DNA of 64,000 nucleotides from Candidatus Hodarchaeota archaeon (GTDB lineage: Archaea; Asgardarchaeota; Lokiarchaeia; Sigyniarchaeales; SOKP01). The translations under genes were made by a program, and so were the position numbers. Each line of letters starts with the position of its first letter. Within the stretch, counting starts at the first letter, position 1. The notes under the pieces were generated by a model. The model saw only the letters and a program-made list of their open reading frames with translations, did no database searches and was not told the origin of the DNA. The stretch lies in NCBI GenBank assembly GCA_048886685.1, contig JBHLKM010000004.1, forward strand, positions 50,486-114,485, written 5' to 3'. Positions 5,259 to 53,285 of the stretch are shown piece by piece.

Positions 5259-6545
5259 ATGAAAGATTTGAGAAAAAAGTTAGAAATCCCAAAAGATGCT
5301 TTAAAATCTGTGAATGATTTTTTACTTGATCAGAATAATCCTTTAATTAACAATTTATTGACTGTATTAGATAAATATGGTGGTATTGAAGAAATTAATA
5401 AAAAAGCACGAGAAGCTAGTAAATTAGATAACTTAATCAATAAATTAGCTAAGAAGAATTCTGATCATGTTAAGGATATTGAGTGGCTTATAAAGGCTCG
5501 AGATGACCATTCTTTTATTAATATTAAAGAATATAGAAAAAAAATCTTAGGAGAAAAAGCTTTAGAAATGAAATTCAATGACGATTATGCTGTTACTTTA
5601 GAATTATCAGCTTGTCAATATTTTCCCTTTTTGATTGATATCGCAAAAAATGCAATAGAAAACCAGAAACTAGTTCCAGGAAGAATTATTCGAGTAAGAA
5701 GAATGAAGGAGCAAGAAGAAGATGGAGATTTATTAGCAATGACTGCCGCTATGCAAATTATTGGGTCAACCTGGGTAGAAACGCTCGATACGAAAGGCAC
5801 GGCTCCAGGTCCAGATGGAATGCCTGTGAATGTGCATCTAGGAGGCCCGGATACGATTACTGGATATTTTGGAGGAGTTGGACAGCCTAATGATTTTGCC
5901 TTAAAGTGGATTGATGAATATCTTTATTATTATACTAATTATGGTATAAAGCAAGTACTTAATGTTAATCCTGGAACTGTTCTTTTAGGTTATTTTATTT
6001 ATAAACTAGGGATTAATAATGAATTTAAAATTAGTGTATACATGGGGAATGACAATCCTTATTCTTGTTTATGGACACTCCTAACTGCTAAATTATTTGC
6101 TCGAGAAGATGGAAGTAGCCCTTTAATTGGATTTAATTTATCAAATGCAGTAAATAATGAAACTATAGAGATGGCTGCATATATTCGAAAACCATTTGGT
6201 TTTGAAGATGTTATTAGATTAGAGCATCATATAACAGAGACTTGGAAGAGTATAGTAAGACAACCCTATGACCGAAGAGATGAATTGTTAGAGTTAGCAA
6301 AAAAGGTAAAAAATATAAGTGCTAAACATGAAGGTGGAAACGTAGAAGTCGATGGGAAAAGAGAACATCCTACAGATATTCTTGAATACTTTATGCCTAA
6401 AGAAGAATTAAAACAAGCAGGTTTGTGGGATTATTTAAGAATTAATCATTTAGATCGATATGAAGCAGTAAATTCAACCGCAGAAACTCTTACTAAAAAT
6501 GGATTATCATTTATTGCTGCAAATGAATTACATCACTATGAATAA
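5259..6545 (+). CDS. conserved hypothetical protein (428 aa, enzyme-like), first gene of operon with DapA-Fae fusion
   Basis: Long ORF with Gly/His/Asp-rich motifs (DTKGT, NVHLGG, GYFGGVGQPN, EHHITE, SAKHEGG); 20 nt upstream of the next gene. Confidence 0.8.
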   Translation: MKDLRKKLEIPKDALKSVNDFLLDQNNPLINNLLTVLDKYGGIEEINKKAREASKLDNLINKLAKKNSDHVKDIEWLIKARDDHSFINIKEYRKKILGEKALEMKFNDDYAVTLELSACQYFPFLIDIAKNAIENQKLVPGRIIRVRRMKEQEEDGDLLAMTAAMQIIGSTWVETLDTKGTAPGPDGMPVNVHLGGPDTITGYFGGVGQPNDFALKWIDEYLYYYTNYGIKQVLNVNPGTVLLGYFIYKLGINNEFKISVYMGNDNPYSCLWTLLTAKLFAREDGSSPLIGFNLSNAVNNETIEMAAYIRKPFGFEDVIRLEHHITETWKSIVRQPYDRRDELLELAKKVKNISAKHEGGNVEVDGKREHPTDILEYFMPKEELKQAGLWDYLRINHLDRYEAVNSTAETLTKNGLSFIAANELHHYE

Positions 6546-6565
6546 AATATTGAGGTAAAAATATC

Positions 6566-8056
6566 ATGGGTAAATTTAATTTTAGACCTACTGGGGTAAT
6601 GCCTGCATTAGTTACACCATTTAATAAAACTGATGAGTCCATTAATGAGGAAAATTTGAGAAATTTAGTAAATCATCTTATTGAACAAGGAGTCACAGGT
6701 CTTGTACCCGTTGGAACTACTGGTGAATTTGTGAATATGAATTTTGAGGAACGTCTGAAAGTAATAGAAATTGTAGTTGATGAAACGAATGGCCGAGTTC
6801 CAGTTATTGCGGGAACAGGAGAAACAGGGACTAAATTAGTAATAGAAGCTACTAAAGCGGCAACTGATATTGGTGCAGATGCTGTATTAATTGTAACACC
6901 CTATTACTTAAAGCCCAAGGCAAAAGGTTTATACGATCATTATTATACTATTACAGAAAAAACGGATATTCCTATTGTTTTATATAACATTCCTGCTTGT
7001 ACTGGAGTGGAATTGCCATGGACGGTTGTAGAAGATTTAGTTGATATCGAGAATTTCGTAGCGATAAAAGATTCGAGTGGAGATTACAAATATTTTTCGG
7101 CATTATTAGAAAAAGTAAGTGATAAGATCTCAGTTTTGATTGGATGGGATGAAAATGTATTGGGGGCTTTAGCAGGAGGTGCTGCAGGCTGCATTCTAGG
7201 CTCTGCAAATGTATTTCCAAAAATATGGCTTGAAATATATGAACATGTGAAAAATAATCGTTTAGAAGAGGCACAGATACTACAGAAAAAAGTACAAAAA
7301 TTAGCAAGACTATTAATAAATTCTGGAGCATTAGGAGTAAAATCATGTTTGAATATGATGAAAATTCCAGTAGGGACTACACGTCAACCATTAGTACTTG
7401 GTGACGCGCTCTCTTATGAGATTAAAGATGAATTACGCGTAGAACTTGAAAAATTAGGATTAATTAAAAAAACAGAAATCCAATTTGAATTTGGAGAAAA
7501 GCCACTTACAAGTCGTTTTTACGCAGTTGGTATTACTCCTCAGAAAATCACTGATTTTGAACTAAAAGTAGGGGAATCTCTTGTAGGGGATCGTGCAGAA
7601 CTTGCTCATATCGATCTCCTAATTGGCCGAAAAAATGGACCTGTTGGTAATGCATATGCTCAAGCTTTAACAAATCCAGAAGAAGGACGTGAAGGGCTTC
7701 AGGTCATTCTAGAACCAAATATGCAAGTTAAACCACCAACAATTATGATTCCCACTGTACGTCCAACTTCTCTTCGTCATGCTAGCCTTACTTATGGTCC
7801 TGCCCAAGCGGCTATTGCTAAAGCTGTTATGCAATGTGTTGAAGATGGAATTCTCCCAAAAGAATTAGCTAATGATATAGTTCTAATTGTAAATGTTTTT
7901 GTTCATCCTAGTGCTAGTGCAAGAAAAAGAATTTTTATCAATAATTATAAGGCAACTCGAAATGCAATCCGAAAAGCAATGGAAGGCTTACCAACAGTAA
8001 ATGATGGAATAAAGAACGCAGAAAATGCACGGCATCCTTTTAGGAATGATCCTTAA
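6566..8056 (+). CDS. DapA/NAL-family class I aldolase fused to C-terminal formaldehyde-activating enzyme (Fae) domain
   Basis: N-terminal GTTGE, PYY, LYNIP, IKDSS (Schiff-base K168). C-terminal VGESLVG..AHIDLLIG..GPVG..KPPTIMIP..GPAQAAIAKAV..FVHP..NYKAT matches Fae. Confidence 0.88.
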   Translation: MGKFNFRPTGVMPALVTPFNKTDESINEENLRNLVNHLIEQGVTGLVPVGTTGEFVNMNFEERLKVIEIVVDETNGRVPVIAGTGETGTKLVIEATKAATDIGADAVLIVTPYYLKPKAKGLYDHYYTITEKTDIPIVLYNIPACTGVELPWTVVEDLVDIENFVAIKDSSGDYKYFSALLEKVSDKISVLIGWDENVLGALAGGAAGCILGSANVFPKIWLEIYEHVKNNRLEEAQILQKKVQKLARLLINSGALGVKSCLNMMKIPVGTTRQPLVLGDALSYEIKDELRVELEKLGLIKKTEIQFEFGEKPLTSRFYAVGITPQKITDFELKVGESLVGDRAELAHIDLLIGRKNGPVGNAYAQALTNPEEGREGLQVILEPNMQVKPPTIMIPTVRPTSLRHASLTYGPAQAAIAKAVMQCVEDGILPKELANDIVLIVNVFVHPSASARKRIFINNYKATRNAIRKAMEGLPTVNDGIKNAENARHPFRNDP

Positions 8057-15904: not shown

Positions 15905-17902
15905 TTATAACCTTCCAGTTATAATCGAATAAATTTGTTCGGCAGTAAATCCTTTAATATCTATCGCTGAGCATCTACAATTACCTGAACAGGCACCACA
16001 TCCTTTACATAGAGCTTCATTAATTTTTGCTATTGTACCTAATCGTTTATCATCAACAAGTTCAATTGCTCCATAAGCACAATTCTCTACGCACATTCCA
16101 CAGCCAATACAACGTTCTGCGCGAACTACCGCAAAGAACGGTTCAACTTCTACTTCACCTTGAGCCATCAACGCAGAGGCACTTGAAGCAGCTCCTTTAG
16201 CCTGAGCAACAGCATCTGGAATATCTTTTGGTCCTTGGGCCACACCAGCAATAAAAATTCCTTCTGTTAAAGTGTCTACAGGGCGTAATTTAGGATGAGC
16301 TTCTAAAAAGAATCCATCTGCTGATCTTTGAATTCTTAATAGAGAAGTTATAATATCTGCATCAGCTCGAGGTTCTAAACCACAAGATAAAACAAATAAA
16401 TCTACTGTTAGTTCAATAGGTTGTTGTAGTAAAGTATCTTCAGCTCTTATGATAATATTATGATCATCATCTTCGGTTACCTCTGCTATTCTACCTCTCA
16501 TATAATTGATTCCGTAATTGCGTCCTGCTGATTCATAAAATTCTTCATAACCTTTTCCAAAAGCTCGAATATCCATATAGAATATGTAAACATCGGCATT
16601 AGGATGTTTTTCTTTATATTGTCTTGCTTGTTTAGTAGCATACATGCAACAAACTCTTGAACAATATTGATTTCCTCCCTCTCTAAAATTTCGACTTCCT
16701 ACACATTGAAGGAAAGCAATACTATGAGGTTCTTTCAGATCAGATGGTCTTACAGGTTTTCCTACCACTGGTCCAAAAGAACTTAATAATCGTTCCATTT
16801 GAAGCCCTGTAATGACATTGGGATATTTTCCATATCCATATTGTTTTAATTCCGTAGGATCATATAAATCCCATCCTGTAGCAACTATTATTGTTCCTAC
16901 TTTAATTTTAATTTCTTCGGGTTCTTCATCATAAATAATTGCCTCAGGTTCACAAACATCTTGCCTCGCACATATTCCGCATTTTATACAATTATCCATA
17001 TCTATAGTATATTGACCCGGAACAGCTTGAGGAAACGGAATATAAATTGCTTTACGAGTAGCTAATCCTAAATCAAATTCATTTCCTACTATAACTGGAC
17101 AATAATCAACACAAATTCCACATCCAGTACATTTTTCTTGATCTACGTAATGAGGTTTCTTTAAGATAGTAACATCAAAATTCCCGATATACCCAGAGAC
17201 TTCTACTACTTCAGAATAAGTGAGAAGTTCGATATTTTTCTCACGTGAAACTTCTGACATTTTTGGAGTTAAGATACAACTACTACAATCCATTGTGGGA
17301 AAAGTTTTGTCTAATTGTGCCATATGACCGCCAATCGTAGGTGTTTTTTCAACTAGATACACTTTATAGCCTTCTGTAGCCAGATCCAAAGCAGCATTCA
17401 TTCCAGCAATACCACCTCCAATTATTAAACACGAGGGCTCTACTTTTACTTTCTGAACTTCCAAAGGGACTAACTCTCTTGCCTTCGCGACAGCCATCCT
17501 AATATGATCTTTTGCAGTTTCATATGCTCCGTCTGGTTCTTTCATATGAACCCATGTGGAGTGTTCTCTAATATTTGCCATTTCAAATAAGAATTGGTTT
17601 AATCCTGCTTCCCTACAGGCTATTCTAAAAGTAGGTTCATGCATCCTTGGAGAACAAGCAGCAACGACAACTCTATTTACTTTACCTGCTTCAATGTCTT
17701 CTTTAATCATCTTTTGTCCTACATCAGAGCAGAAAAATTTATATTCTTGGGCGACCTCTACATTGGGTAAAGTTTTTACATACTCTAATAAATCAGGAAC
17801 AGAAACAACGCCACCAATATTTACGCCACAGTGGCAAATATATACACCAATTTTAGGTCTTTCATTTCCTGTAACTTTAATTTCTTTTTTAATTTCTGTC
17901 AT
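15905..17902 (-). CDS. hdrA: heterodisulfide reductase subunit A (Cys form)
   Basis: CHCGVNI, ACSPRMHE, GGGIAG FAD motif, KTFPTMDCSSC, CVGSR, CSRVCC, inserted and C-terminal ferredoxin domains. Confidence 0.95.
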   Translation of the reverse strand: MTEIKKEIKVTGNERPKIGVYICHCGVNIGGVVSVPDLLEYVKTLPNVEVAQEYKFFCSDVGQKMIKEDIEAGKVNRVVVAACSPRMHEPTFRIACREAGLNQFLFEMANIREHSTWVHMKEPDGAYETAKDHIRMAVAKARELVPLEVQKVKVEPSCLIIGGGIAGMNAALDLATEGYKVYLVEKTPTIGGHMAQLDKTFPTMDCSSCILTPKMSEVSREKNIELLTYSEVVEVSGYIGNFDVTILKKPHYVDQEKCTGCGICVDYCPVIVGNEFDLGLATRKAIYIPFPQAVPGQYTIDMDNCIKCGICARQDVCEPEAIIYDEEPEEIKIKVGTIIVATGWDLYDPTELKQYGYGKYPNVITGLQMERLLSSFGPVVGKPVRPSDLKEPHSIAFLQCVGSRNFREGGNQYCSRVCCMYATKQARQYKEKHPNADVYIFYMDIRAFGKGYEEFYESAGRNYGINYMRGRIAEVTEDDDHNIIIRAEDTLLQQPIELTVDLFVLSCGLEPRADADIITSLLRIQRSADGFFLEAHPKLRPVDTLTEGIFIAGVAQGPKDIPDAVAQAKGAASSASALMAQGEVEVEPFFAVVRAERCIGCGMCVENCAYGAIELVDDKRLGTIAKINEALCKGCGACSGNCRCSAIDIKGFTAEQIYSIITGRL

Positions 17903-17915
17903 TTTATTTTCTTAC

Positions 17916-18866
17916 CTATATTAATTGTTCTTTAACACTATTTAAGAATGGATCTATAGGAATAAAAGGAGAAACCCCTTGTAATTCATGGTTTTTTATC
18001 AAACCTAATAAATTGGGATCCATTCCAAAAGCAACACCTAAGAGTTGGGTTATATATATTACAGGAATTTTGAATGGTTCACCAATAATATTTCCATAAA
18101 TATTGTTTACTTCCATTTGGCCAAGATCTAATTGAAGATGACAAAACGGGCAACAATCAACAATAATATCTACTCCTGCATCTCTCATATTAGTTAGTTT
18201 TTCTCTAGTAAAATCAGCTGCGACTTCTTTGACAGCTGTTCTAACAGCTCCACCAGCACCGCAACACATATACTTATCTTTATAATTTACACTTTTGGCT
18301 CCAGTGATCTCAACAATTTCATCAAGAAATCTTGGTTCTTCATATTCACCTTGCCAAGGTCTTTTATCACTTGGTTTTACGATGTGGCATCCATAATGAA
18401 CAGCGACCTTTAAATCTGAAAATTTTAGCTTGATATGATCTTTTAAATAATCTAGTCCCATATCAAGATATAGAGCTTGAACAATGTGTTTTGGCTCAAG
18501 ATTCCCTTTATATACACGATTAATCTTAGCTAGGTATTTATTAACTTCTTTTTTTAATTCAAACTCATGTTCAAGTTCATACCATGCGTCTCTTAAGGTT
18601 CCATAGCATCCATTGCATCCAGTAATAGGATTTACTCCTATTTCTTCTGCAATAGAAATATTTCTAGCAGCAATTACGAGCCAAGTAGGAATATGAAATG
18701 CTCTAAAAACACCTGGAGCAGGACAACATGAGGCTCCTGGTAAATCCAAAATTTCAGCATCAAGGTGATCAAAAACACTTCTAATAGAGGCTTCAATCAT
18801 AGGATAACGGTTAGGAATCACACATCCTAAAAATAAACCATATCTCCATTTATAATTCTCACTCAT
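17916..18866 (-). CDS. hdrB: heterodisulfide reductase subunit B
   Basis: FLGC, CCPAPG, CNGC, HYGCH, CCGAGG, CPFC (two CCG domains). Confidence 0.93.
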   Translation of the reverse strand: MSENYKWRYGLFLGCVIPNRYPMIEASIRSVFDHLDAEILDLPGASCCPAPGVFRAFHIPTWLVIAARNISIAEEIGVNPITGCNGCYGTLRDAWYELEHEFELKKEVNKYLAKINRVYKGNLEPKHIVQALYLDMGLDYLKDHIKLKFSDLKVAVHYGCHIVKPSDKRPWQGEYEEPRFLDEIVEITGAKSVNYKDKYMCCGAGGAVRTAVKEVAADFTREKLTNMRDAGVDIIVDCCPFCHLQLDLGQMEVNNIYGNIIGEPFKIPVIYITQLLGVAFGMDPNLLGLIKNHELQGVSPFIPIDPFLNSVKEQLI

Positions 18867-18868
18867 CT

Positions 18869-19471
18869 TTACTCCTCCTTGTTTTCGTTCTCTTTCTTTG
18901 ATCTCTCTTCTTTTAATTTAGCTGCATTATCCATTAATTTTCGAAAACCCACTTCTTTCATCAAGGTTTGACACTCCTTTACAGCTTCAGGATAAGAATG
19001 AACTGTCGGTGGTAATGGTGGTAAACCATAAGATTCTCTTAGGTCTCTCCATCTTTTATTATTTTCACCATTGGCAGGAACACCATGTCCAGTAGCATAA
19101 AAAATGTTATTAGCTAATCCAAAGTGAGGATCTAAAATATAACCTTCCTCAACAGCTATATTTCTAAGTTTAATAATCATATCTGTTACAGGAATATTTC
19201 TAGGACATCGTTCATAACAATAATAACAGGTTGAACAAAGCCAAATATCTATATCTTTTAAAACAGATTCATCTCCAGTTAAAGCCCTTCTTATGGCAGA
19301 TCTTGTGCGATATGCTGTCCTCCTCCCTGATGGGCATCCTCCAGTACATGTACCACAATTTATACATGCCCTTAATTTCTCTAAGCCCGCGTCAACAAAT
19401 TTTTGTGCAATTCTTGAACTTGTGGACTTATAAACTTTTCTTTTAATATACTTTTCTACATTATCGCTCAT
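18869..19471 (-). CDS. hdrC: heterodisulfide reductase subunit C
   Basis: CINCGTCTGGCP and CSTCYYCYERCP; adjacent to hdrB. Confidence 0.93.
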   Translation of the reverse strand: MSDNVEKYIKRKVYKSTSSRIAQKFVDAGLEKLRACINCGTCTGGCPSGRRTAYRTRSAIRRALTGDESVLKDIDIWLCSTCYYCYERCPRNIPVTDMIIKLRNIAVEEGYILDPHFGLANNIFYATGHGVPANGENNKRWRDLRESYGLPPLPPTVHSYPEAVKECQTLMKEVGFRKLMDNAAKLKEERSKKENENKEE

Positions 19472-32332: not shown

Positions 32333-34054
32333 TTATGCTCCATTTACTATTTTTACTTTCGGAGCATAAGCATCATGAACTGCGTAATTAGCAAAATTTA
32401 TACTATAATGATCACGCCAATGAGTTTTGACATCTTCTAGCATCGCATCCATGATTTCATCTTTTACTTTACCTTCTGCACAAATCGTTGTCCCCATCGG
32501 TGTTGCTGTAATTTCGCCATCTTTAACTACAATCTGTCCATCTTTTATTGTATAAGCTGCTAAAGAAAAAGCTTTTTCTATAGCTTGTCCATCTGTTTCA
32601 TCAGAATCTATCTTATAAATTGCAAGATCCCCGATTGCTCCTAGCCCTAAATGCCCTCGATCTGTCATCCCTAAACATTTAGCTGTACCCCCCCTTGTGA
32701 TTATACAGATTTCATTCAATGTAAGTTCTCGATCAATATCTTTTAATTGAGTTTTCTCAGAAGCTCTTTTAGAACATATGTTTAAAAGCACGTCATCCCT
32801 GGATTTCTTATCCATGAGCCATCGAACAATTTGCGGATATGAAGTGAATGGTCCACCATTCGGATGATCGGTCGTCATAAAGACTTGCCATGGATTTTTT
32901 GTCAAAAGCATGAGTTCTAACCCTACTGCCCATTGAACGGCATTAACAGCAGTCTTAGGTGAAAAGAAATATGGTACAATCCCAGAACCCGATTCACCTT
33001 CTACTTGCCCATTAATCCATTTTACTCCCGGTCTGTTTCCCCATGCCGATGTTCCACCAATATGATGCAAAGCAAACTCCCAAGGACCATCAGCTGTCAT
33101 TGTTGTTGTTGCTGCTTTTCCGAATATTACTTGTCCTGCATCAATTGTAATATGATTATGTTTATTTAAATATTCGGCTATATCGGCCGCTCCAGATTCA
33201 AAATCACCCCAGTTTGTTCCTCCATATGCATTAAATTGACAATGGGTTAAATGTAAAGCTGAATCTCTCCCTTCTTTCGTTTTAATTTTCCCTACGGCTT
33301 CAAATGTTTCGATTGTATGCTTTTTATTACCTGGATGTCCTAAATTGTTTGCATGGACATGAATCGTGTGAGGTAATCCCAAGTTCTCATTGATTGTTGA
33401 TAAACCTTCTAATATTTCTCTAGGAGTTACATCAAAATGAAATACATGATCATCTAATGAACTAACATTTTTACCCCATGTCCAGTTCTCAACGCCTCCA
33501 GGATTTACTATTTTTACAGCATAACCTTTTGTAACATGTAAAATCCAGGAGACATAAGCAGCCAGTTTGTCATAATTCTTTTCTTTAATATATTCCATCA
33601 CAAACCAGTTGTTTCCAAATAATGGAAATGCTGCTTTATCAATAATAGGAGTAACTAAGAATTCTTCATGAGTATGACGTGCTTTAAGAAGTGGCATTGC
33701 TGGTTCAACAACTGTAGTATAACCTAACCTAGCATAACGATATCCAGTGACCCAAGTGGAAGGAACTGACCAACCAGTACCACTTCGAGTTAATTTAGTA
33801 CGTTTTTCATTGAATTCTTCTAGTTTATCATCAGGTCGAAATGATCGTCCAGCATTAACTTTCGTGCCAGCAATATGAGAGTGTATATCGACACCACCAG
33901 GCATTACAATCATTCCGGAAGCATCAATAACCTTAGCGTCGCTATTAACTTTTTCTACGATTACTCCATCTTTAATATGAATTTCCTTTTTTTCACCGTC
34001 AATTCCATTTAAAGGATCATATACAAGACCGTTTTTTATAATTAGATCTTTCAT
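32333..34054 (-). CDS. fwdA: formylmethanofuran dehydrogenase subunit A
   Basis: GGVDIHSHIAG, KIVNPGG, HVHANNLG.PGN, TTDHPNGGPF. Confidence 0.95.
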   Translation of the reverse strand: MKDLIIKNGLVYDPLNGIDGEKKEIHIKDGVIVEKVNSDAKVIDASGMIVMPGGVDIHSHIAGTKVNAGRSFRPDDKLEEFNEKRTKLTRSGTGWSVPSTWVTGYRYARLGYTTVVEPAMPLLKARHTHEEFLVTPIIDKAAFPLFGNNWFVMEYIKEKNYDKLAAYVSWILHVTKGYAVKIVNPGGVENWTWGKNVSSLDDHVFHFDVTPREILEGLSTINENLGLPHTIHVHANNLGHPGNKKHTIETFEAVGKIKTKEGRDSALHLTHCQFNAYGGTNWGDFESGAADIAEYLNKHNHITIDAGQVIFGKAATTTMTADGPWEFALHHIGGTSAWGNRPGVKWINGQVEGESGSGIVPYFFSPKTAVNAVQWAVGLELMLLTKNPWQVFMTTDHPNGGPFTSYPQIVRWLMDKKSRDDVLLNICSKRASEKTQLKDIDRELTLNEICIITRGGTAKCLGMTDRGHLGLGAIGDLAIYKIDSDETDGQAIEKAFSLAAYTIKDGQIVVKDGEITATPMGTTICAEGKVKDEIMDAMLEDVKTHWRDHYSINFANYAVHDAYAPKVKIVNGA

Positions 34055-48978: not shown

Positions 48979-50283
48979 ATGGTAAAAGTGGCTTTTATGC
49001 AACTTTCCGATTGTTGGGGGTGCCATCAATCCTTATTAAATACTCATTTAGGATTGTTACCTGTTCTTCCAGCACTCGAGATTGTTTATTGGCCAGCTGT
49101 AGTAGACTTTAAAGATGATTCATTGAAAGCGAGAGAGGATGGTTCGATTTTAGTCGGTTTTATTGAAGGATCTATAAGAACTAAAGAAGATCTTGAAAGT
49201 GTTAAATTAATGAGGCATAAATGTGCTCTCATTATAGCATTTGGTTCTTGTGCTTGTTATGGAAACGTAGCTGGATTAGCTAACCAGTGGGATATTGAAG
49301 AATGTCAAAACCGAAAATTCTTAGAGGTTGAATCTGCAACTGAACCGAAGATTCCAACTCAACATGTACCTGGATTTCAAGATAAAATCGTAAATGTTGA
49401 TGAAATAATTAACGTAGATGCTTATATCTCAGGATGTCCACCAAAACCAGAAGGTATAGTCTCCGCAGTAGCATTTCTGTTAGGACAAAAACCTTTCCCT
49501 CTGAATGATCTAGCATTTTGTAATGATTGCAGTATTAAAAATGATTGTTTATTAGATGCGGGAAAATTTTGTTTTGGATCAATTACTAGTATAGGATGTA
49601 GTTTAAAATGTACTACTAATGGAAACCCATGTGTTGGTTGCTTTGGTCCAGCAAAAACGGTAGATTCAAGAGCTGAGAAGTTAAACAGTATGTCGAAAAA
49701 TCTGACATCAATTAGTTCAGGGGATAAAAAGAATTTGTATGAGTTTTTAACTCTATTCTTAAATATTCCGCTGATGGCAGGATTTGATTTAGCTGGAGAT
49801 ATATTAAAACAAGTCAAAAGATATGGAAGTCCTAAAACCCCTTTAGCAAATTTACCTCCAACAACGGAGGAAATTGCAGGGGAATTAATGGTTTTCTTGA
49901 GAGATAATCCGGATTTCATTGAAATATCAAATGTCTGCGACACATGTCCTAGAATCATAGGAAGTAAATCTACGATGACAAGAGTTAAAAGAGATTATGA
50001 AGGACTACCTAATATGGATGATTGTCTTATTGAACAAGGTTATATCTGTATGGGTCCTGTCACTAAAGCTGGCTGTGGTGGTATGTGTATAAAGGTTAAT
50101 GCTCCGTGTTCTGGCTGTTTTGGTCAGACAGAGTGGGGTGTTAATCAAGCAGAGAGATTTGCAGATACAGTATTAAAACAATTTAATGTGAGCTTATCGA
50201 AGGATGATCTACTTGCTCAAGTAAAAGATCCCATTGGTACTTTTGAAAAATTCACATTAGCATCAAGAAAAGGAGGCGTATAA
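48979..50283 (+). CDS. vhuG: F420-non-reducing [NiFe(Se)] hydrogenase small subunit with duplicated C-terminal Fe-S domain
   Basis: CWGC, EGS, GSCA, GCPP; two copies of CxxC..C.G..T..GC...C.....PC.GC.G. Confidence 0.88.
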   Translation: MVKVAFMQLSDCWGCHQSLLNTHLGLLPVLPALEIVYWPAVVDFKDDSLKAREDGSILVGFIEGSIRTKEDLESVKLMRHKCALIIAFGSCACYGNVAGLANQWDIEECQNRKFLEVESATEPKIPTQHVPGFQDKIVNVDEIINVDAYISGCPPKPEGIVSAVAFLLGQKPFPLNDLAFCNDCSIKNDCLLDAGKFCFGSITSIGCSLKCTTNGNPCVGCFGPAKTVDSRAEKLNSMSKNLTSISSGDKKNLYEFLTLFLNIPLMAGFDLAGDILKQVKRYGSPKTPLANLPPTTEEIAGELMVFLRDNPDFIEISNVCDTCPRIIGSKSTMTRVKRDYEGLPNMDDCLIEQGYICMGPVTKAGCGGMCIKVNAPCSGCFGQTEWGVNQAERFADTVLKQFNVSLSKDDLLAQVKDPIGTFEKFTLASRKGGV

Positions 50284-50287
50284 AAAA

Positions 50288-51592
50288 ATGGTAAAAGAGA
50301 TAGAAGTAGAGCCAGTCACTCGATTAGAGGGACATGGTGGTCTGAGATTAGTTTTAGGTGACGATGGAAAAGTACAAAGTGTACAATTTAACATCACTTC
50401 GACGAGATTTTTTGAAAAATTTCTTGAAGGACGTTATTGTGAACATATCCCAAGAATAACACCTAGAATTTGCGGTATTTGTCCCATTCCTCATCATCTG
50501 ACACCAACTAAAGCTGTAGAAGATGCTTGGGGTGTACAGATTCCTCCTGCGGCATATAAATTACGACAATTATTGCAGAACGCAAAACAATATTCATCAC
50601 ATGCATTGCATTTCTATGCACTCGCAGCCCCTGATTTCTTATTAGGACCTATGGCTGACCCTGCATTAAGAAATGTTGTCCATGTTATTAACAAAATGCC
50701 AGATGTAGGTGCAATGGCATTAAAAATGATGGATTTTGGTCAAAAATTATGTCAGGTAATTGGTGGAAAATCAGTACACCCAATTTCAGCTATTGTTGGT
50801 GGTATGAAGAAACCTATGGATGAAAGTGCAAGGGATTTGTTTTTAAAACAAATTGAGGATCAAGTTGAATGGACAAAAAAGACTGTTGATATCGGTTTAA
50901 AAGTAGTTGAAGATTACTGGGATGTCGTTGCTAATGTTGGAGTTGTTCCTACTTATTACGTTGGTTTGACAAAAAACGGTGTTCATGATATTTATGATGG
51001 GGATATTAGAATTGTCTCTCCTACTGGAGAAAAATTCGATTATGCTCCTCAAAAATATCTAGATGCCTTAGGTGAACATATTCCAGAACACTCTTATGCA
51101 ACTCATATGTATTATAAACCTGCAGGATATCCTGAGGGAATTTACCGAGCAAATACATTAGCAATGATTAACGCAGCCGATAAAATGGCAACTCCTTTAG
51201 CTGATGAGGCACTACAAGCAATGAGAGCAAAAATTGGGAATGTACCTCATCATACATTTGCGTATCATTGGGCTCGATTAATCGAGTTAGTTGAGTCGAT
51301 TGAAGTTATTGCAACATTGCTTCAAGATGATGATATTGTTAATCCCGATTGCAAAACATTGGATGTTCAACCTAAAGAAGGGAATGGTGTCGGAGTTACT
51401 GAAGCTCCAAGGGGTTTACTTTTATATAATATATGGTCTGATGCTGAAGGTATCTGCAAGAAAGCAAACCTCTTAGTAGCAACCAACCACAATATTGCGG
51501 GAATCGAAAAGACATTAATGCATGTTGCTAAACAAGTATTTGAAGACAAAGCGCTAGAAGGATTAAAATTACCAGATCCATGGATTAAATAA
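50288..51592 (+). CDS. vhuA: F420-non-reducing hydrogenase large subunit, lacking the C-terminal L2 motif
   Basis: TRLEGHG, RICGICP L1 motif, EAPRG; ends without DPCxxCxxH, which VhuU supplies. Confidence 0.92.
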   Translation: MVKEIEVEPVTRLEGHGGLRLVLGDDGKVQSVQFNITSTRFFEKFLEGRYCEHIPRITPRICGICPIPHHLTPTKAVEDAWGVQIPPAAYKLRQLLQNAKQYSSHALHFYALAAPDFLLGPMADPALRNVVHVINKMPDVGAMALKMMDFGQKLCQVIGGKSVHPISAIVGGMKKPMDESARDLFLKQIEDQVEWTKKTVDIGLKVVEDYWDVVANVGVVPTYYVGLTKNGVHDIYDGDIRIVSPTGEKFDYAPQKYLDALGEHIPEHSYATHMYYKPAGYPEGIYRANTLAMINAADKMATPLADEALQAMRAKIGNVPHHTFAYHWARLIELVESIEVIATLLQDDDIVNPDCKTLDVQPKEGNGVGVTEAPRGLLLYNIWSDAEGICKKANLLVATNHNIAGIEKTLMHVAKQVFEDKALEGLKLPDPWIK

Positions 51593-51625
51593 ACTAAATC
51601 AAAATTTAGAGTGTGAAGAAAAAAG

Positions 51626-51775
51626 ATGAGTGATATACCAGAAGGGGTAGTAAATGTCTTAGAAATGATAGTCCGTTGTTTTGACTGTTGACTATCATGT
51701 GCCGCTCACATCACAGTTGTTGATGAGGATGGTAAAGAAATTTACTCTCGTGAGATGCACGTTGGTTTAGGATGA
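51626..51775 (+). CDS. vhuU: selenoprotein VhuU (49 aa, Sec at codon 22)
   Basis: MSDIPEGVVNVLEMIVRCFDC-U(TGA 51689-91)-LSCAAHITVVDEDGKEIYSREMHVGLG; matches the hydrogenase L2 motif D-x-U-x-x-C-x-x-H. Confidence 0.92.
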
Positions 51776-51833
51776 AATATCTAATAAAAATCATAGATTG
51801 GATATGACTGCCCTTGCATGGGTTAAAACCAAC
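51761..51833 (+). promoter_or_regulatory. candidate eukaryote-like SECIS element for vhuU
   Basis: ATGA(51772-75)-A-ATATCTAAT-AAAAATCATAG-ATTGGATAT-GA hairpin, closed by GTTGGTTT(51761-68)/AAACCAAC(51826-33). Confidence 0.6.
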
Positions 51834-51879
51834 CAATAAAAAAAAATGAAAAAAATACTCGAAAAAAACGTGATAAAAT

Positions 51880-52404
51880 ATGACATTACCATTAGGTATA
51901 GATTTTGAATTTAGGAAACTTGTTATGGACGTACATATTGGATCTGATAAGATTAAATATTGTTATCAATGTAGCAGATGTACAGACAATTGTCCTGTCG
52001 CTGCAGTTGCTAACCCATTTTATGAAAACGTTTTTGATCCTAGATTAATTGTCCTTGGTACTCTTTTAGGATATAAAGATGTTGTAATGGCTCTTGCAGG
52101 TACAAAATCGGCGATAGTACCATGGGGCTGTACAGTATGTGACACGTGTGATACCGTTTGTCCTCAAGCTATCGAGGTTACTGAGATTATTACTTTAGCA
52201 AAAAACGTAACTACTGGAGCCGGTTTGGCACCAGACAATGTCGTAGCTCAGGCAAAAACTGTTTTCGAAAATGGAAAAGCGATTCCATCTCAACCAGCGA
52301 TCGAGAGAAGACGTGAGCAATTAGGCTTACCAGCTGTAGTTGCACCAGATATTAATGAAGTACAAACTTTGTTAAAAGCAATAGGTGCAGATAAAAAATT
52401 ATAA
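51880..52404 (+). CDS. hdrC: heterodisulfide reductase subunit C (second copy)
   Basis: CYQCSRCTDNCP, CTVCDTCDTVCP, RREQLGLP. Confidence 0.88.
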   Translation: MTLPLGIDFEFRKLVMDVHIGSDKIKYCYQCSRCTDNCPVAAVANPFYENVFDPRLIVLGTLLGYKDVVMALAGTKSAIVPWGCTVCDTCDTVCPQAIEVTEIITLAKNVTTGAGLAPDNVVAQAKTVFENGKAIPSQPAIERRREQLGLPAVVAPDINEVQTLLKAIGADKKL

Positions 52405-52418
52405 TGGAGGTTAAAAAA

Positions 52419-53285
52419 ATGACAGAGTATAAAATGTTTGAGGGATGTGTTATTGGAAACAGAATTCCATTTATTGAGGCAGCCTCCAGAAAAGTTTTAG
52501 ACAAGATTGGAGTTCAAACATCACAAGCTCCATTTGCTTGTTGTCCAGATCCTACTGGAGTAAAAAGCTTTGATAATACAGCTTGGCTCGCTTTAGGTGC
52601 TCGTAACTTATGTTTAGCAGAAGCTGAAGGAAAAGATATAATTTCGCTTTGTAATGGTTGTACTAATACGCTTCGTGGGGTCCAACACCAATTAAAACAT
52701 GATTCTCATAAAATGAAAGCGATTAATGAAGAACTTGCTAAGATCGGAAAAGAATATAAAGGTTCTATTGATGTAAAGCATTTTGTTGATGTTTTAAGGT
52801 CAAATTTAGATTCGATAAGAGGTGCAATTACGAGGCAAATGGGTGATTTAAAGGTTGCCTGTCATCCTGGTTGCCATTACATGCGACCTGTTGAATGGAT
52901 GGAATCTGATGATCCGTTACGTCCTAAAAATTTGAAAGAAATCGTTGCTGTTTCAGGAGCTAATGTAGTTGATTATGATGAATTAGCATTGTGCTGTGGA
53001 AATGCTGTTGCTGGTCCATTTCCAGAACATGGAGAAGCGATACTAAAACAAAAGTTTGATTCGATTAAAAAATCTGGCGCAAATTGTATCGTTGTAAACT
53101 GTCCTGCATGTTTTCAGCGATTAGACGGAGAACAGCGAAATCTTTCAAAGAAATTTGAAAAAGAATATAATATTCCGGTATTATATATAACAGAATTGTT
53201 AGCTTTGGCTATGGGTGTTAGTTCTGAGGAGATAGGTTTAAAAAACCATCGAACTAGACGAAATACAGCCATAGAAAACCTTTAA
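52419..53285 (+). CDS. hdrB: heterodisulfide reductase subunit B (second copy)
   Basis: FEGC, CCPDP, CNGC, HPGCH, CCG, CPAC. Start set to MTEY after a GGAGG SD. Confidence 0.9.
   Translation: MTEYKMFEGCVIGNRIPFIEAASRKVLDKIGVQTSQAPFACCPDPTGVKSFDNTAWLALGARNLCLAEAEGKDIISLCNGCTNTLRGVQHQLKHDSHKMKAINEELAKIGKEYKGSIDVKHFVDVLRSNLDSIRGAITRQMGDLKVACHPGCHYMRPVEWMESDDPLRPKNLKEIVAVSGANVVDYDELALCCGNAVAGPFPEHGEAILKQKFDSIKKSGANCIVVNCPACFQRLDGEQRNLSKKFEKEYNIPVLYITELLALAMGVSSEEIGLKNHRTRRNTAIENL

Follow-up and report, generated by a model that had tools for sequence, protein, structure and literature searches.

What reaction is served by a DapA-like aldolase that is fused to a formaldehyde-activating enzyme (Fae), and what does the unnamed 428-residue protein encoded just ahead of it contribute? 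The question is raised by two genes, here called U and D, on a stretch of 64,000 nucleotides (the window) from Candidatus Hodarchaeota archaeon (assembly GCA_048886685.1, contig JBHLKM010000004.1, positions 50,486 to 114,485). D is a real, conserved and misannotated member of a two-gene module with U. We propose, with a probability of about 0.65, that D would catalyse HOB + H4MPT <-> pyruvate + methylene-H4MPT + H2O, where HOB is 4-hydroxy-2-oxobutanoate and H4MPT is tetrahydromethanopterin. We envision D as a bifunctional, reversible HOB aldolase/Fae, whose barrel would hold pyruvate as a Schiff base on K168 and cleave or form HOB, and whose Fae domain would move formaldehyde onto or off H4MPT; U would act on the other side of HOB.

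An initial annotation had described D as a DapA-family barrel joined to a complete Fae domain, and a hidden Markov model (HMM) scan found both parts. The barrel matches Pfam DHDPS (PF00701, E 1.7e-76, 257 bits), and D belongs to the class I aldolase superfamily of dihydrodipicolinate synthase (DHDPS) and N-acetylneuraminate lyase (NAL) by this match, its TIM barrel, the Schiff-base K168, the catalytic Y140 and the GTTGE motif, which reads G50-T51-T52-G53-E54 in the sequence. The Fae part covers positions 1-158 of the 159 in PF08714 (E 1.8e-55), exceeds the cut-off of TIGR03126 (185.7 against 118 bits) and matches PDB entry 1y5y at E 8.5e-32; the domain is thus complete, as claimed, and its start moves from about 7550 to about 7565-7568. 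In the predicted model, two domains are joined by a linker of low confidence. All 120 D homologues listed (476-505 aa, the named ones mostly from Promethearchaeota) share the DHDPS+Fae architecture and come from independent samples, and each of the 31 close D-type barrels retrieved from loci carries a fused Fae. The homologues point to a Lokiarchaeia-type Asgard archaeon as the host. The listed homologues rule out an assembly artefact, which is also rejected by conserved gene order at other loci. For genome G000 a contamination of 8.37% is listed; since locus L001 matches the operon at 92-96% identity and in the same order, the operon is no stray contig feature.

Is D simply a DHDPS of lysine synthesis? 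D shares with E. coli DapA the pyruvate and Schiff-base set (T51, T52, Y114, Y140, K168), but the positions that bind aspartate semialdehyde (ASA) are altered: R138 is C145, D187 is W194, the N248 region reads SGALG and S48 is F55. The Cys in place of R138, already pointed out in the initial annotation, recurs in 119 of 120 close homologues; among 31 Fae-fused relatives aligned this position holds Cys, Val or Leu and never Arg, and R138, D187 and N248 are replaced in all aligned fusions. On another contig (C7) the same genome carries a canonical dapA (351 bits against TIGR00674) that keeps all three residues and adjoins dapB, together with dapF- and lysA-like open reading frames (ORFs). This dapA groups with that of E. 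coli in the tree (support 100/97), and an approximately unbiased (AU) test rejects a grouping of D with DapA (p=3.3e-6). D is a paralogue of the genome's true DapA, and the earlier claim that it is not a DHDPS is strongly supported by the changed ASA residues, the separate canonical cluster and the AU test. Scores of D also fall below the HMM cut-offs of NanA, KdgD, archaeal 2-keto-3-deoxygluconate (KDG) aldolase and the HpaI type. One could still argue that D is a second true DHDPS whose fusion to Fae is incidental: it passes the dapA profile (TIGR00674, 244.7 bits against a cut-off of 206.15), databases name such proteins DapA, and its best PDB matches, the closest solved structures, are DHDPS, with a template modelling (TM) score of 0.95 by target and 41% identity to 2yxg. 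Against the residue, gene-cluster and tree evidence, and given that D is present where asd was not found (asd in 0/2 for family f12, 0/2 for f13 and 2/5 for f7) and that no dap genes were seen beside it, we consider this explanation very improbable and reject D as a true DHDPS.

The Fae domain of D retains H348, D350 and Q414, equivalent to His22, Asp24 and Gln88, which we take from the Methylobacterium extorquens (M. extorquens) Fae structure to be functional residues, as well as the C-terminal HP motif, and would form methylene-H4MPT. Mtd, Mch, FwdA and a separate Fae-Hps were found in the genome; the first three strongly support an H4MPT pathway in this organism. The fwdA gene of the window, which had been cited in favour of an H4MPT/methanofuran pathway, is real (TIGR03121); lying 24 kb from the operon, it is evidence for the C1 carrier of the genome, not for a link to the operon. 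In archaeal bifunctional Fae-Hps (NF009833; H4MPT hydro-lyase/3-hexulose-6-phosphate synthase), as in D, a formaldehyde-handling aldolase barrel is fused to Fae, and the Fae-Hps of this genome (contig C3, 520 bits) is 41% identical to the Fae domain of D. D differs in that its barrel is of the Schiff-base DHDPS type rather than Hps and its Fae domain is C-terminal, with Thr at the Lys71 position; D has no Hps domain, and its 151 bits against NF009833 come from the Fae part only and fall under the cut-off of 274. Tandem D::Fae pairs occur at loci L201, L202, L205, L211, L106 and L108. In the aligned pairs, copy 1 has neither the His22/Asp24 equivalents nor the C-terminal HP motif, and the Gln88 region of copy 2 is altered, which suggests that such pairs may share a split Fae site.

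What kind of protein is U? It has no sequence match in Pfam, NCBIfam or the PDB, a Pfam search with 82 U sequences gave no consistent match, and an Atlas feature search returned unnamed or low-overlap matches only; the database holds at least 8000 homologues. The AlphaFold2 (AF2) model is confident (predicted local distance difference test, pLDDT, 91.7), and fold searches identify it as a TIM barrel. Its nearest Atlas models, all of them predicted, belong to U32-named and unnamed clusters of ~310 aa (TM 0.57/0.78 over 277 aa). A PDB fold search gave generic TIM barrels with no outlier (best Z 11.9), the U32 protein 5d88 (Z 11.2) being tied with unrelated barrels. Conserved residues are E115, R142, R147, E174, D177, H193, K257, E322-H323-H324 and K356-H357-E358, and the conserved Glu, His, Lys and Arg sit at strand ends. 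The U32 family (RlhA, TrhP, UbiU/V; PF01136) likewise has a TIM barrel with a Lys-x-Glu-x-Gly motif on the last strand. U differs from it in giving no match to PF01136, no hhalign match to this genome's own U32 protein (a single template), and no conserved Cys, its two Cys being kept in only 110 and 75 of 182 homologues aligned. Conserved Cys are essential in the U32 protein RlhA (PMC5727448), so that U is not an iron-sulfur (Fe-S) U32 hydroxylase, and we reject this candidate. A second family, here called V (~312 aa, about 4100 database hits), shares ancestry with U: hhalign aligns the two, strand motifs included, at E 3.5e-5 and 1.4e-4 and ~20% identity; one V protein reached E 0.077 against PF01136, and plasmid V homologues are annotated as U32. 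One of these, a distant relative on an Enterobacter plasmid (L218:8901-18969), stands amid phosphotransferase, aminotransferase, iron redox enzyme and major facilitator superfamily (MFS) genes in what looks like a small-molecule biosynthetic cluster. A divergent U homologue (L220:7001-8158, P0243) comes from a 41-kb contig whose name marks it as a VirSorter call; its neighbours are mostly unannotated, and it is possibly a virus-borne metabolic gene.

The tie between D and its upstream neighbour is borne out by comparison across genomes. We surveyed 150 Asgard genomes, among which kin are not independent and most are incomplete metagenome-assembled genomes (MAGs), and examined 80 genome loci and 80 metagenome U loci, the latter probably mostly bacterial. 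D lies near U in 63 of the 80 genome loci and directly adjacent in 62, with tight spacing as here. U is present in 87 and D in 76 of the genomes, and within the window's own family the genomes with U are those with D. Where a D genome has no U it carries V, mostly adjoining D: U or V occurs in 73 of the 76 D genomes and both together in none, the three that have neither comprising one contig edge and two MAGs that are 86-88% complete. Contigs of Bathyarchaeia type repeatedly carry V-D::Fae operons, and two metagenome contigs have U ahead of tandem D::Fae genes. Adjacency, co-occurrence and the exchange of U for V strongly support a functional tie between D and the 428-residue family. U also occurs without D and is very common in some families (35/37 genomes in f7, 9/9 in f19). 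In f7 (L168-L177, L184) it is unlinked from D and follows an energy-coupling factor (ECF) S-component gene (PF07155), often divergent from a threonine-synthase-like gene.

Which metabolite might connect the two proteins? In 46 of the 80 metagenome loci PanB is the neighbour of U, accompanied by Fhs in 8 and by FolD in 6, and in an Anaerolineae contig V is followed by panB. PanB (TIGR00222) performs the net transfer that we propose for D, of a hydroxymethyl group between a pterin C1 carrier and C3 of a 2-oxoacid, and a PanB variant fills the slot of D beside U and V in bacteria. PanB has another fold and uses a metal enolate and tetrahydrofolate (THF), whereas D would work through a Schiff base with formaldehyde and H4MPT, and would be the H4MPT-using analogue of a pyruvate-specific PanB. 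The PanB-family genes linked to U and V pass TIGR00222; those linked to U form their own clade in a quick tree (SH-aLRT, the Shimodaira-Hasegawa-like approximate likelihood ratio test, 90), and their pocket (V179L/V214I, mostly I202L/I212L) is bulkier than in Asgard and E. coli PanB, which fits a smaller 2-oxoacid, pyruvate. In a third setting, that of families f5 and f19, U shares a cluster with genes for a class I aminotransferase, homoserine dehydrogenase (hom), AOR and, in some cases, a PatB C-S lyase. Neither Mch nor Fae turned up in the f5 and f19 genomes tested, and asd and aspartokinase gave no match in their U+hom+AOR genomes; U and hom occur in the same 13 of 18 f5 genomes, and two metagenome loci likewise have hom and AOR flanking U. 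Homoserine has HOB as its keto acid. PanB with THF, D::Fae with H4MPT and deaminated homoserine thus all converge on HOB, and we infer from these exchanges of partner that HOB would be the common metabolite. The earlier suggestion of HOB as substrate of D gains independent support from the alternative modules. At L134, L137 and L155, the genes beside panB and U encode a corrinoid protein, an MtaA-like methyltransferase and Fhs, a hint of C1 metabolism linked to demethylation.

The PanB neighbourhoods also lend themselves to a different interpretation, in which D acts on another 2-oxoacid, either as a substitute for PanB (2-oxoisovalerate to ketopantoate) with U standing in for ketopantoate reductase, or as an enzyme of hydroxypyruvate or 2-oxobutanoate. 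It would account for the TIGR00222 scores of the PanB-family genes beside U and V and for the equivalent slot held by D::Fae and PanB, and phosphopantothenate synthetase occurs in 135 of the 150 genomes. Ketopantoate synthesis by D is disfavoured because a canonical panB co-occurs with D, in this genome and in most D genomes (f7 35/37, f12 7/7). Moreover, the PanBs linked to U stand apart as a clade and have a bulkier pocket, U is a predicted TIM barrel with no Rossmann fold, and the hom, AOR and aminotransferase partners have no role in pantoate synthesis. We regard this interpretation as improbable and retain HOB as the likelier substrate.

How might U act on the other side of HOB? On a Mycobacterium plasmid a truncated V homologue stands directly before dmpF-dmpG, the usual slot of the hydratase MhpD, and V accompanies lactonase and DgoD-like aldonate dehydratase genes in Thermomicrobium and Streptomyces. 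Both settings fit U/V as a 4-hydroxy-2-oxoacid hydro-lyase or C4-replacement enzyme, and we tentatively suggest that U may make HOB by such chemistry, conceivably starting from 2-oxobut-3-enoate or a 2-oxobutanoate substituted at C4, for example the keto acid of methionine or homocysteine. Alternatively, U might be a tetronate (erythronate/threonate) dehydratase and D an aldolase of 2-keto-3-deoxy-tetronate, which is HOB itself, giving a C4 version of the non-phosphorylative Entner-Doudoroff route that leaves the reaction of D unchanged. The pairing of a dehydratase with a DHDPS-family aldolase is textbook (yagE-yagF), sugar transport, kinase and lactonase genes appear at some U and V loci, and the clustered Glu and His of U could bind a metal. 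Yet a separate dehydratase of the IlvD or DgoD type is already present where sugar-acid genes occur, and the near-universal, highly conserved U of f7 (35/37) and f19 (9/9) would be unexpected for a scarce sugar acid; we find the proposal hard to favour. A further type of partner is found at L178:7085-8128 (G069), where U adjoins a DHDPS-like protein that is very divergent, has a GSTSDG motif and lacks Fae.

In which direction would D work? D and hom tend to exclude each other: the 150 genomes comprise 13 with both, 63 with D only, 53 with hom only and 21 with neither, kin again not being independent, and in the window's own family hom is found in 9 of 10 D-negative and 6 of 23 D-positive genomes. 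The present genome keeps lysC, asd, hom and thrC, so that D is not needed for homoserine here, and a strict replacement of homoserine dehydrogenase does not hold in this genome; the complementarity is only a trend. Its thrC and hom lie on contig C4 (L165:6071-10676) with an ACT-like ORF and an AIR-synthase-like methanogenesis-marker-2 homologue, and no homoserine kinase scored above cut-off in the genome.

A purely biosynthetic role, a sub-case of our proposal, would have D make HOB from pyruvate and methylene-H4MPT for homoserine in place of hom, and U convert HOB to threonine, methionine/homocysteine or a 2-oxobutanoate precursor in place of thrB/thrC. The complementarity of D and hom suits such a role, as do two hom-negative D genomes (G038, G023) that keep a high-scoring thrC and the lower-scoring thrC-like genes that are all that U families f5, f7, f19 and f23 possess. 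Of 6 genomes with U and D and without hom, 5 yielded no hom-linked thrC; this joint loss could mean that U and D replace the whole branch, and since hom-linked thrC is mostly lost together with hom, it modestly favours cleavage. D and hom coexist in this genome and 12 others, and asd with the ASA sulfurtransferase family (homocysteine) is present in 13 of 13 own-family genomes tested. AOR rather than asd/lysC stands beside hom, neither asd nor aspartokinase was matched in U+hom+AOR genomes, Fhs/FolD stand beside PanB-U, AOR normally oxidises aldehydes, and methanogen Fae-Hps captures released formaldehyde; all of these point towards cleavage. Furthermore, a shift of the C4 hydroxyl to C3 without pyridoxal phosphate (PLP) would seem to have no simple polar mechanism. 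We therefore deem an exclusively biosynthetic role unlikely. ThrB was above cut-off in none of 10 genomes, and was not found in G111 either, which has hom and thrC, so that its absence says little; in a check on a role of U in methionine breakdown, methionine gamma-lyase gave no match over cut-off, and no anticorrelation with U was seen. On balance we lean slightly towards cleavage, with pyruvate and C1 units entering fermentation and the H4MPT branch, and treat synthesis as a possible but doubtful direction of D. The HOB reaction is probably near equilibrium and may run both ways in different lineages.

Several observations weigh against the proposed HOB reaction. To the dapA-profile score, the DHDPS structure matches, the incomplete and related genomes of the survey, the hom branch retained here, the thrC of G038 and G023 and the uninformative ThrB result must be added that the position of Fae Lys71, presumably a pterin-site residue, is T397 in D, and among 41 aligned fusions is Thr in 32 and Lys in 4. 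A single D clade was not rejected by the AU test (p=0.27), its monophyly not being demonstrated. The PanB pocket positions are assumed, after mutagenesis of E. coli PanB, to determine substrate size. The Fae-less DHDPS-like partner of U at L178 and the sugar-acid genes beside V indicate that the U/V family probably handles more than one substrate. Substrate, direction, the chemistry of U and channelling are all proposals from comparative genomics.

The reaction that we propose has a precedent in design. The engineered homoserine cycle draws on promiscuous HOB aldolase (HAL, RhmA) and HOB aminotransferase activities, the HAL step being pyruvate + formaldehyde <-> HOB, with HOB tied to homoserine by transamination; the review terms HOB a non-native metabolite made by side activity (PMC8879981). 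In contrast to that side activity, D would be dedicated, conserved and carrier-coupled. Our literature search found no paper on the D fusion, on U/V or on natural HOB pathways, and the HOB <-> pyruvate + C1 reaction described only for engineered pathways.

The layout of the locus is given in the table below. A 20-nt gap between U and D, as first noted, and the ribosome-binding motif within it are compatible with co-transcription, which we infer from the sequence. A scan for sigma-70 promoters and terminators gave nothing above shuffled controls, sigma-70 being the wrong promoter type for archaea. Elsewhere in the window, Mvh/Vhu-like hydrogenase and HdrC/B-like ORFs (48979-53282, with hyp maturation genes nearby) and more Hdr-like ORFs (15905-19471) were recognised, judged from their first residues only.

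Table. Features of the U-D locus and its context in the 64,000-nucleotide window.
Feature	Position	Strand	Basis
Gene U, 428 aa; predicted orphan (beta/alpha)8-barrel enzyme with N-terminal helical extension, U32-like fold	5259..6545	+	ORF
GAGGT Shine-Dalgarno-like motif in the U-D gap	6552..6556	+	Sequence
Gene D, 496 aa; DHDPS/NAL-superfamily class I aldolase fused to Fae	6566..8056	+	ORF, Pfam, TIGR03126, homologues, model
D aldolase barrel, aa 8-294	6587..7447	+	Pfam DHDPS; alignment to E. coli DapA
Cys145 codon (TGT), position of E. coli DapA Arg138	6998..7000	+	Sequence, alignment
D inter-domain linker of low confidence, aa 305-331	7478..7558	+	Predicted model, pLDDT < 50
D Fae domain, aa 335-492	7568..8041	+	Pfam, residue alignment
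fwdA, context only, outside the operon (H4MPT/methanofuran C1 pathway)	32336..34054	-	TIGR03121, 778 bits

What would such a module mean for the biology of these organisms? In anaerobic archaea and bacteria alike, HOB might naturally serve as a metabolic hub. The undescribed, U32-related U/V enzymes would channel a C4 skeleton, possibly derived from methionine or homocysteine, to or from HOB, which would be handled by three modules that are interchangeable according to the C1 carrier (DapA-like::Fae with H4MPT, a PanB variant with THF, and aminotransferase-hom-AOR with neither), and D would be the first natural enzyme dedicated to the pyruvate:formaldehyde aldol reaction; we hold the chances of this wider picture to be evenly balanced. 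If true, the finding would correct a dapA misannotation that is widespread among MAGs of Asgard archaea and Bathyarchaeia, and would supply a dedicated natural enzyme, of use for engineering, for a reaction conceived for synthetic methylotrophy. It would also open U and V, two large and highly conserved families to which no function has been assigned, to experimental test, and would establish a direct link between pyruvate and C1 metabolism in abundant sediment archaea, including relatives of the lineage that hosted the origin of eukaryotes.

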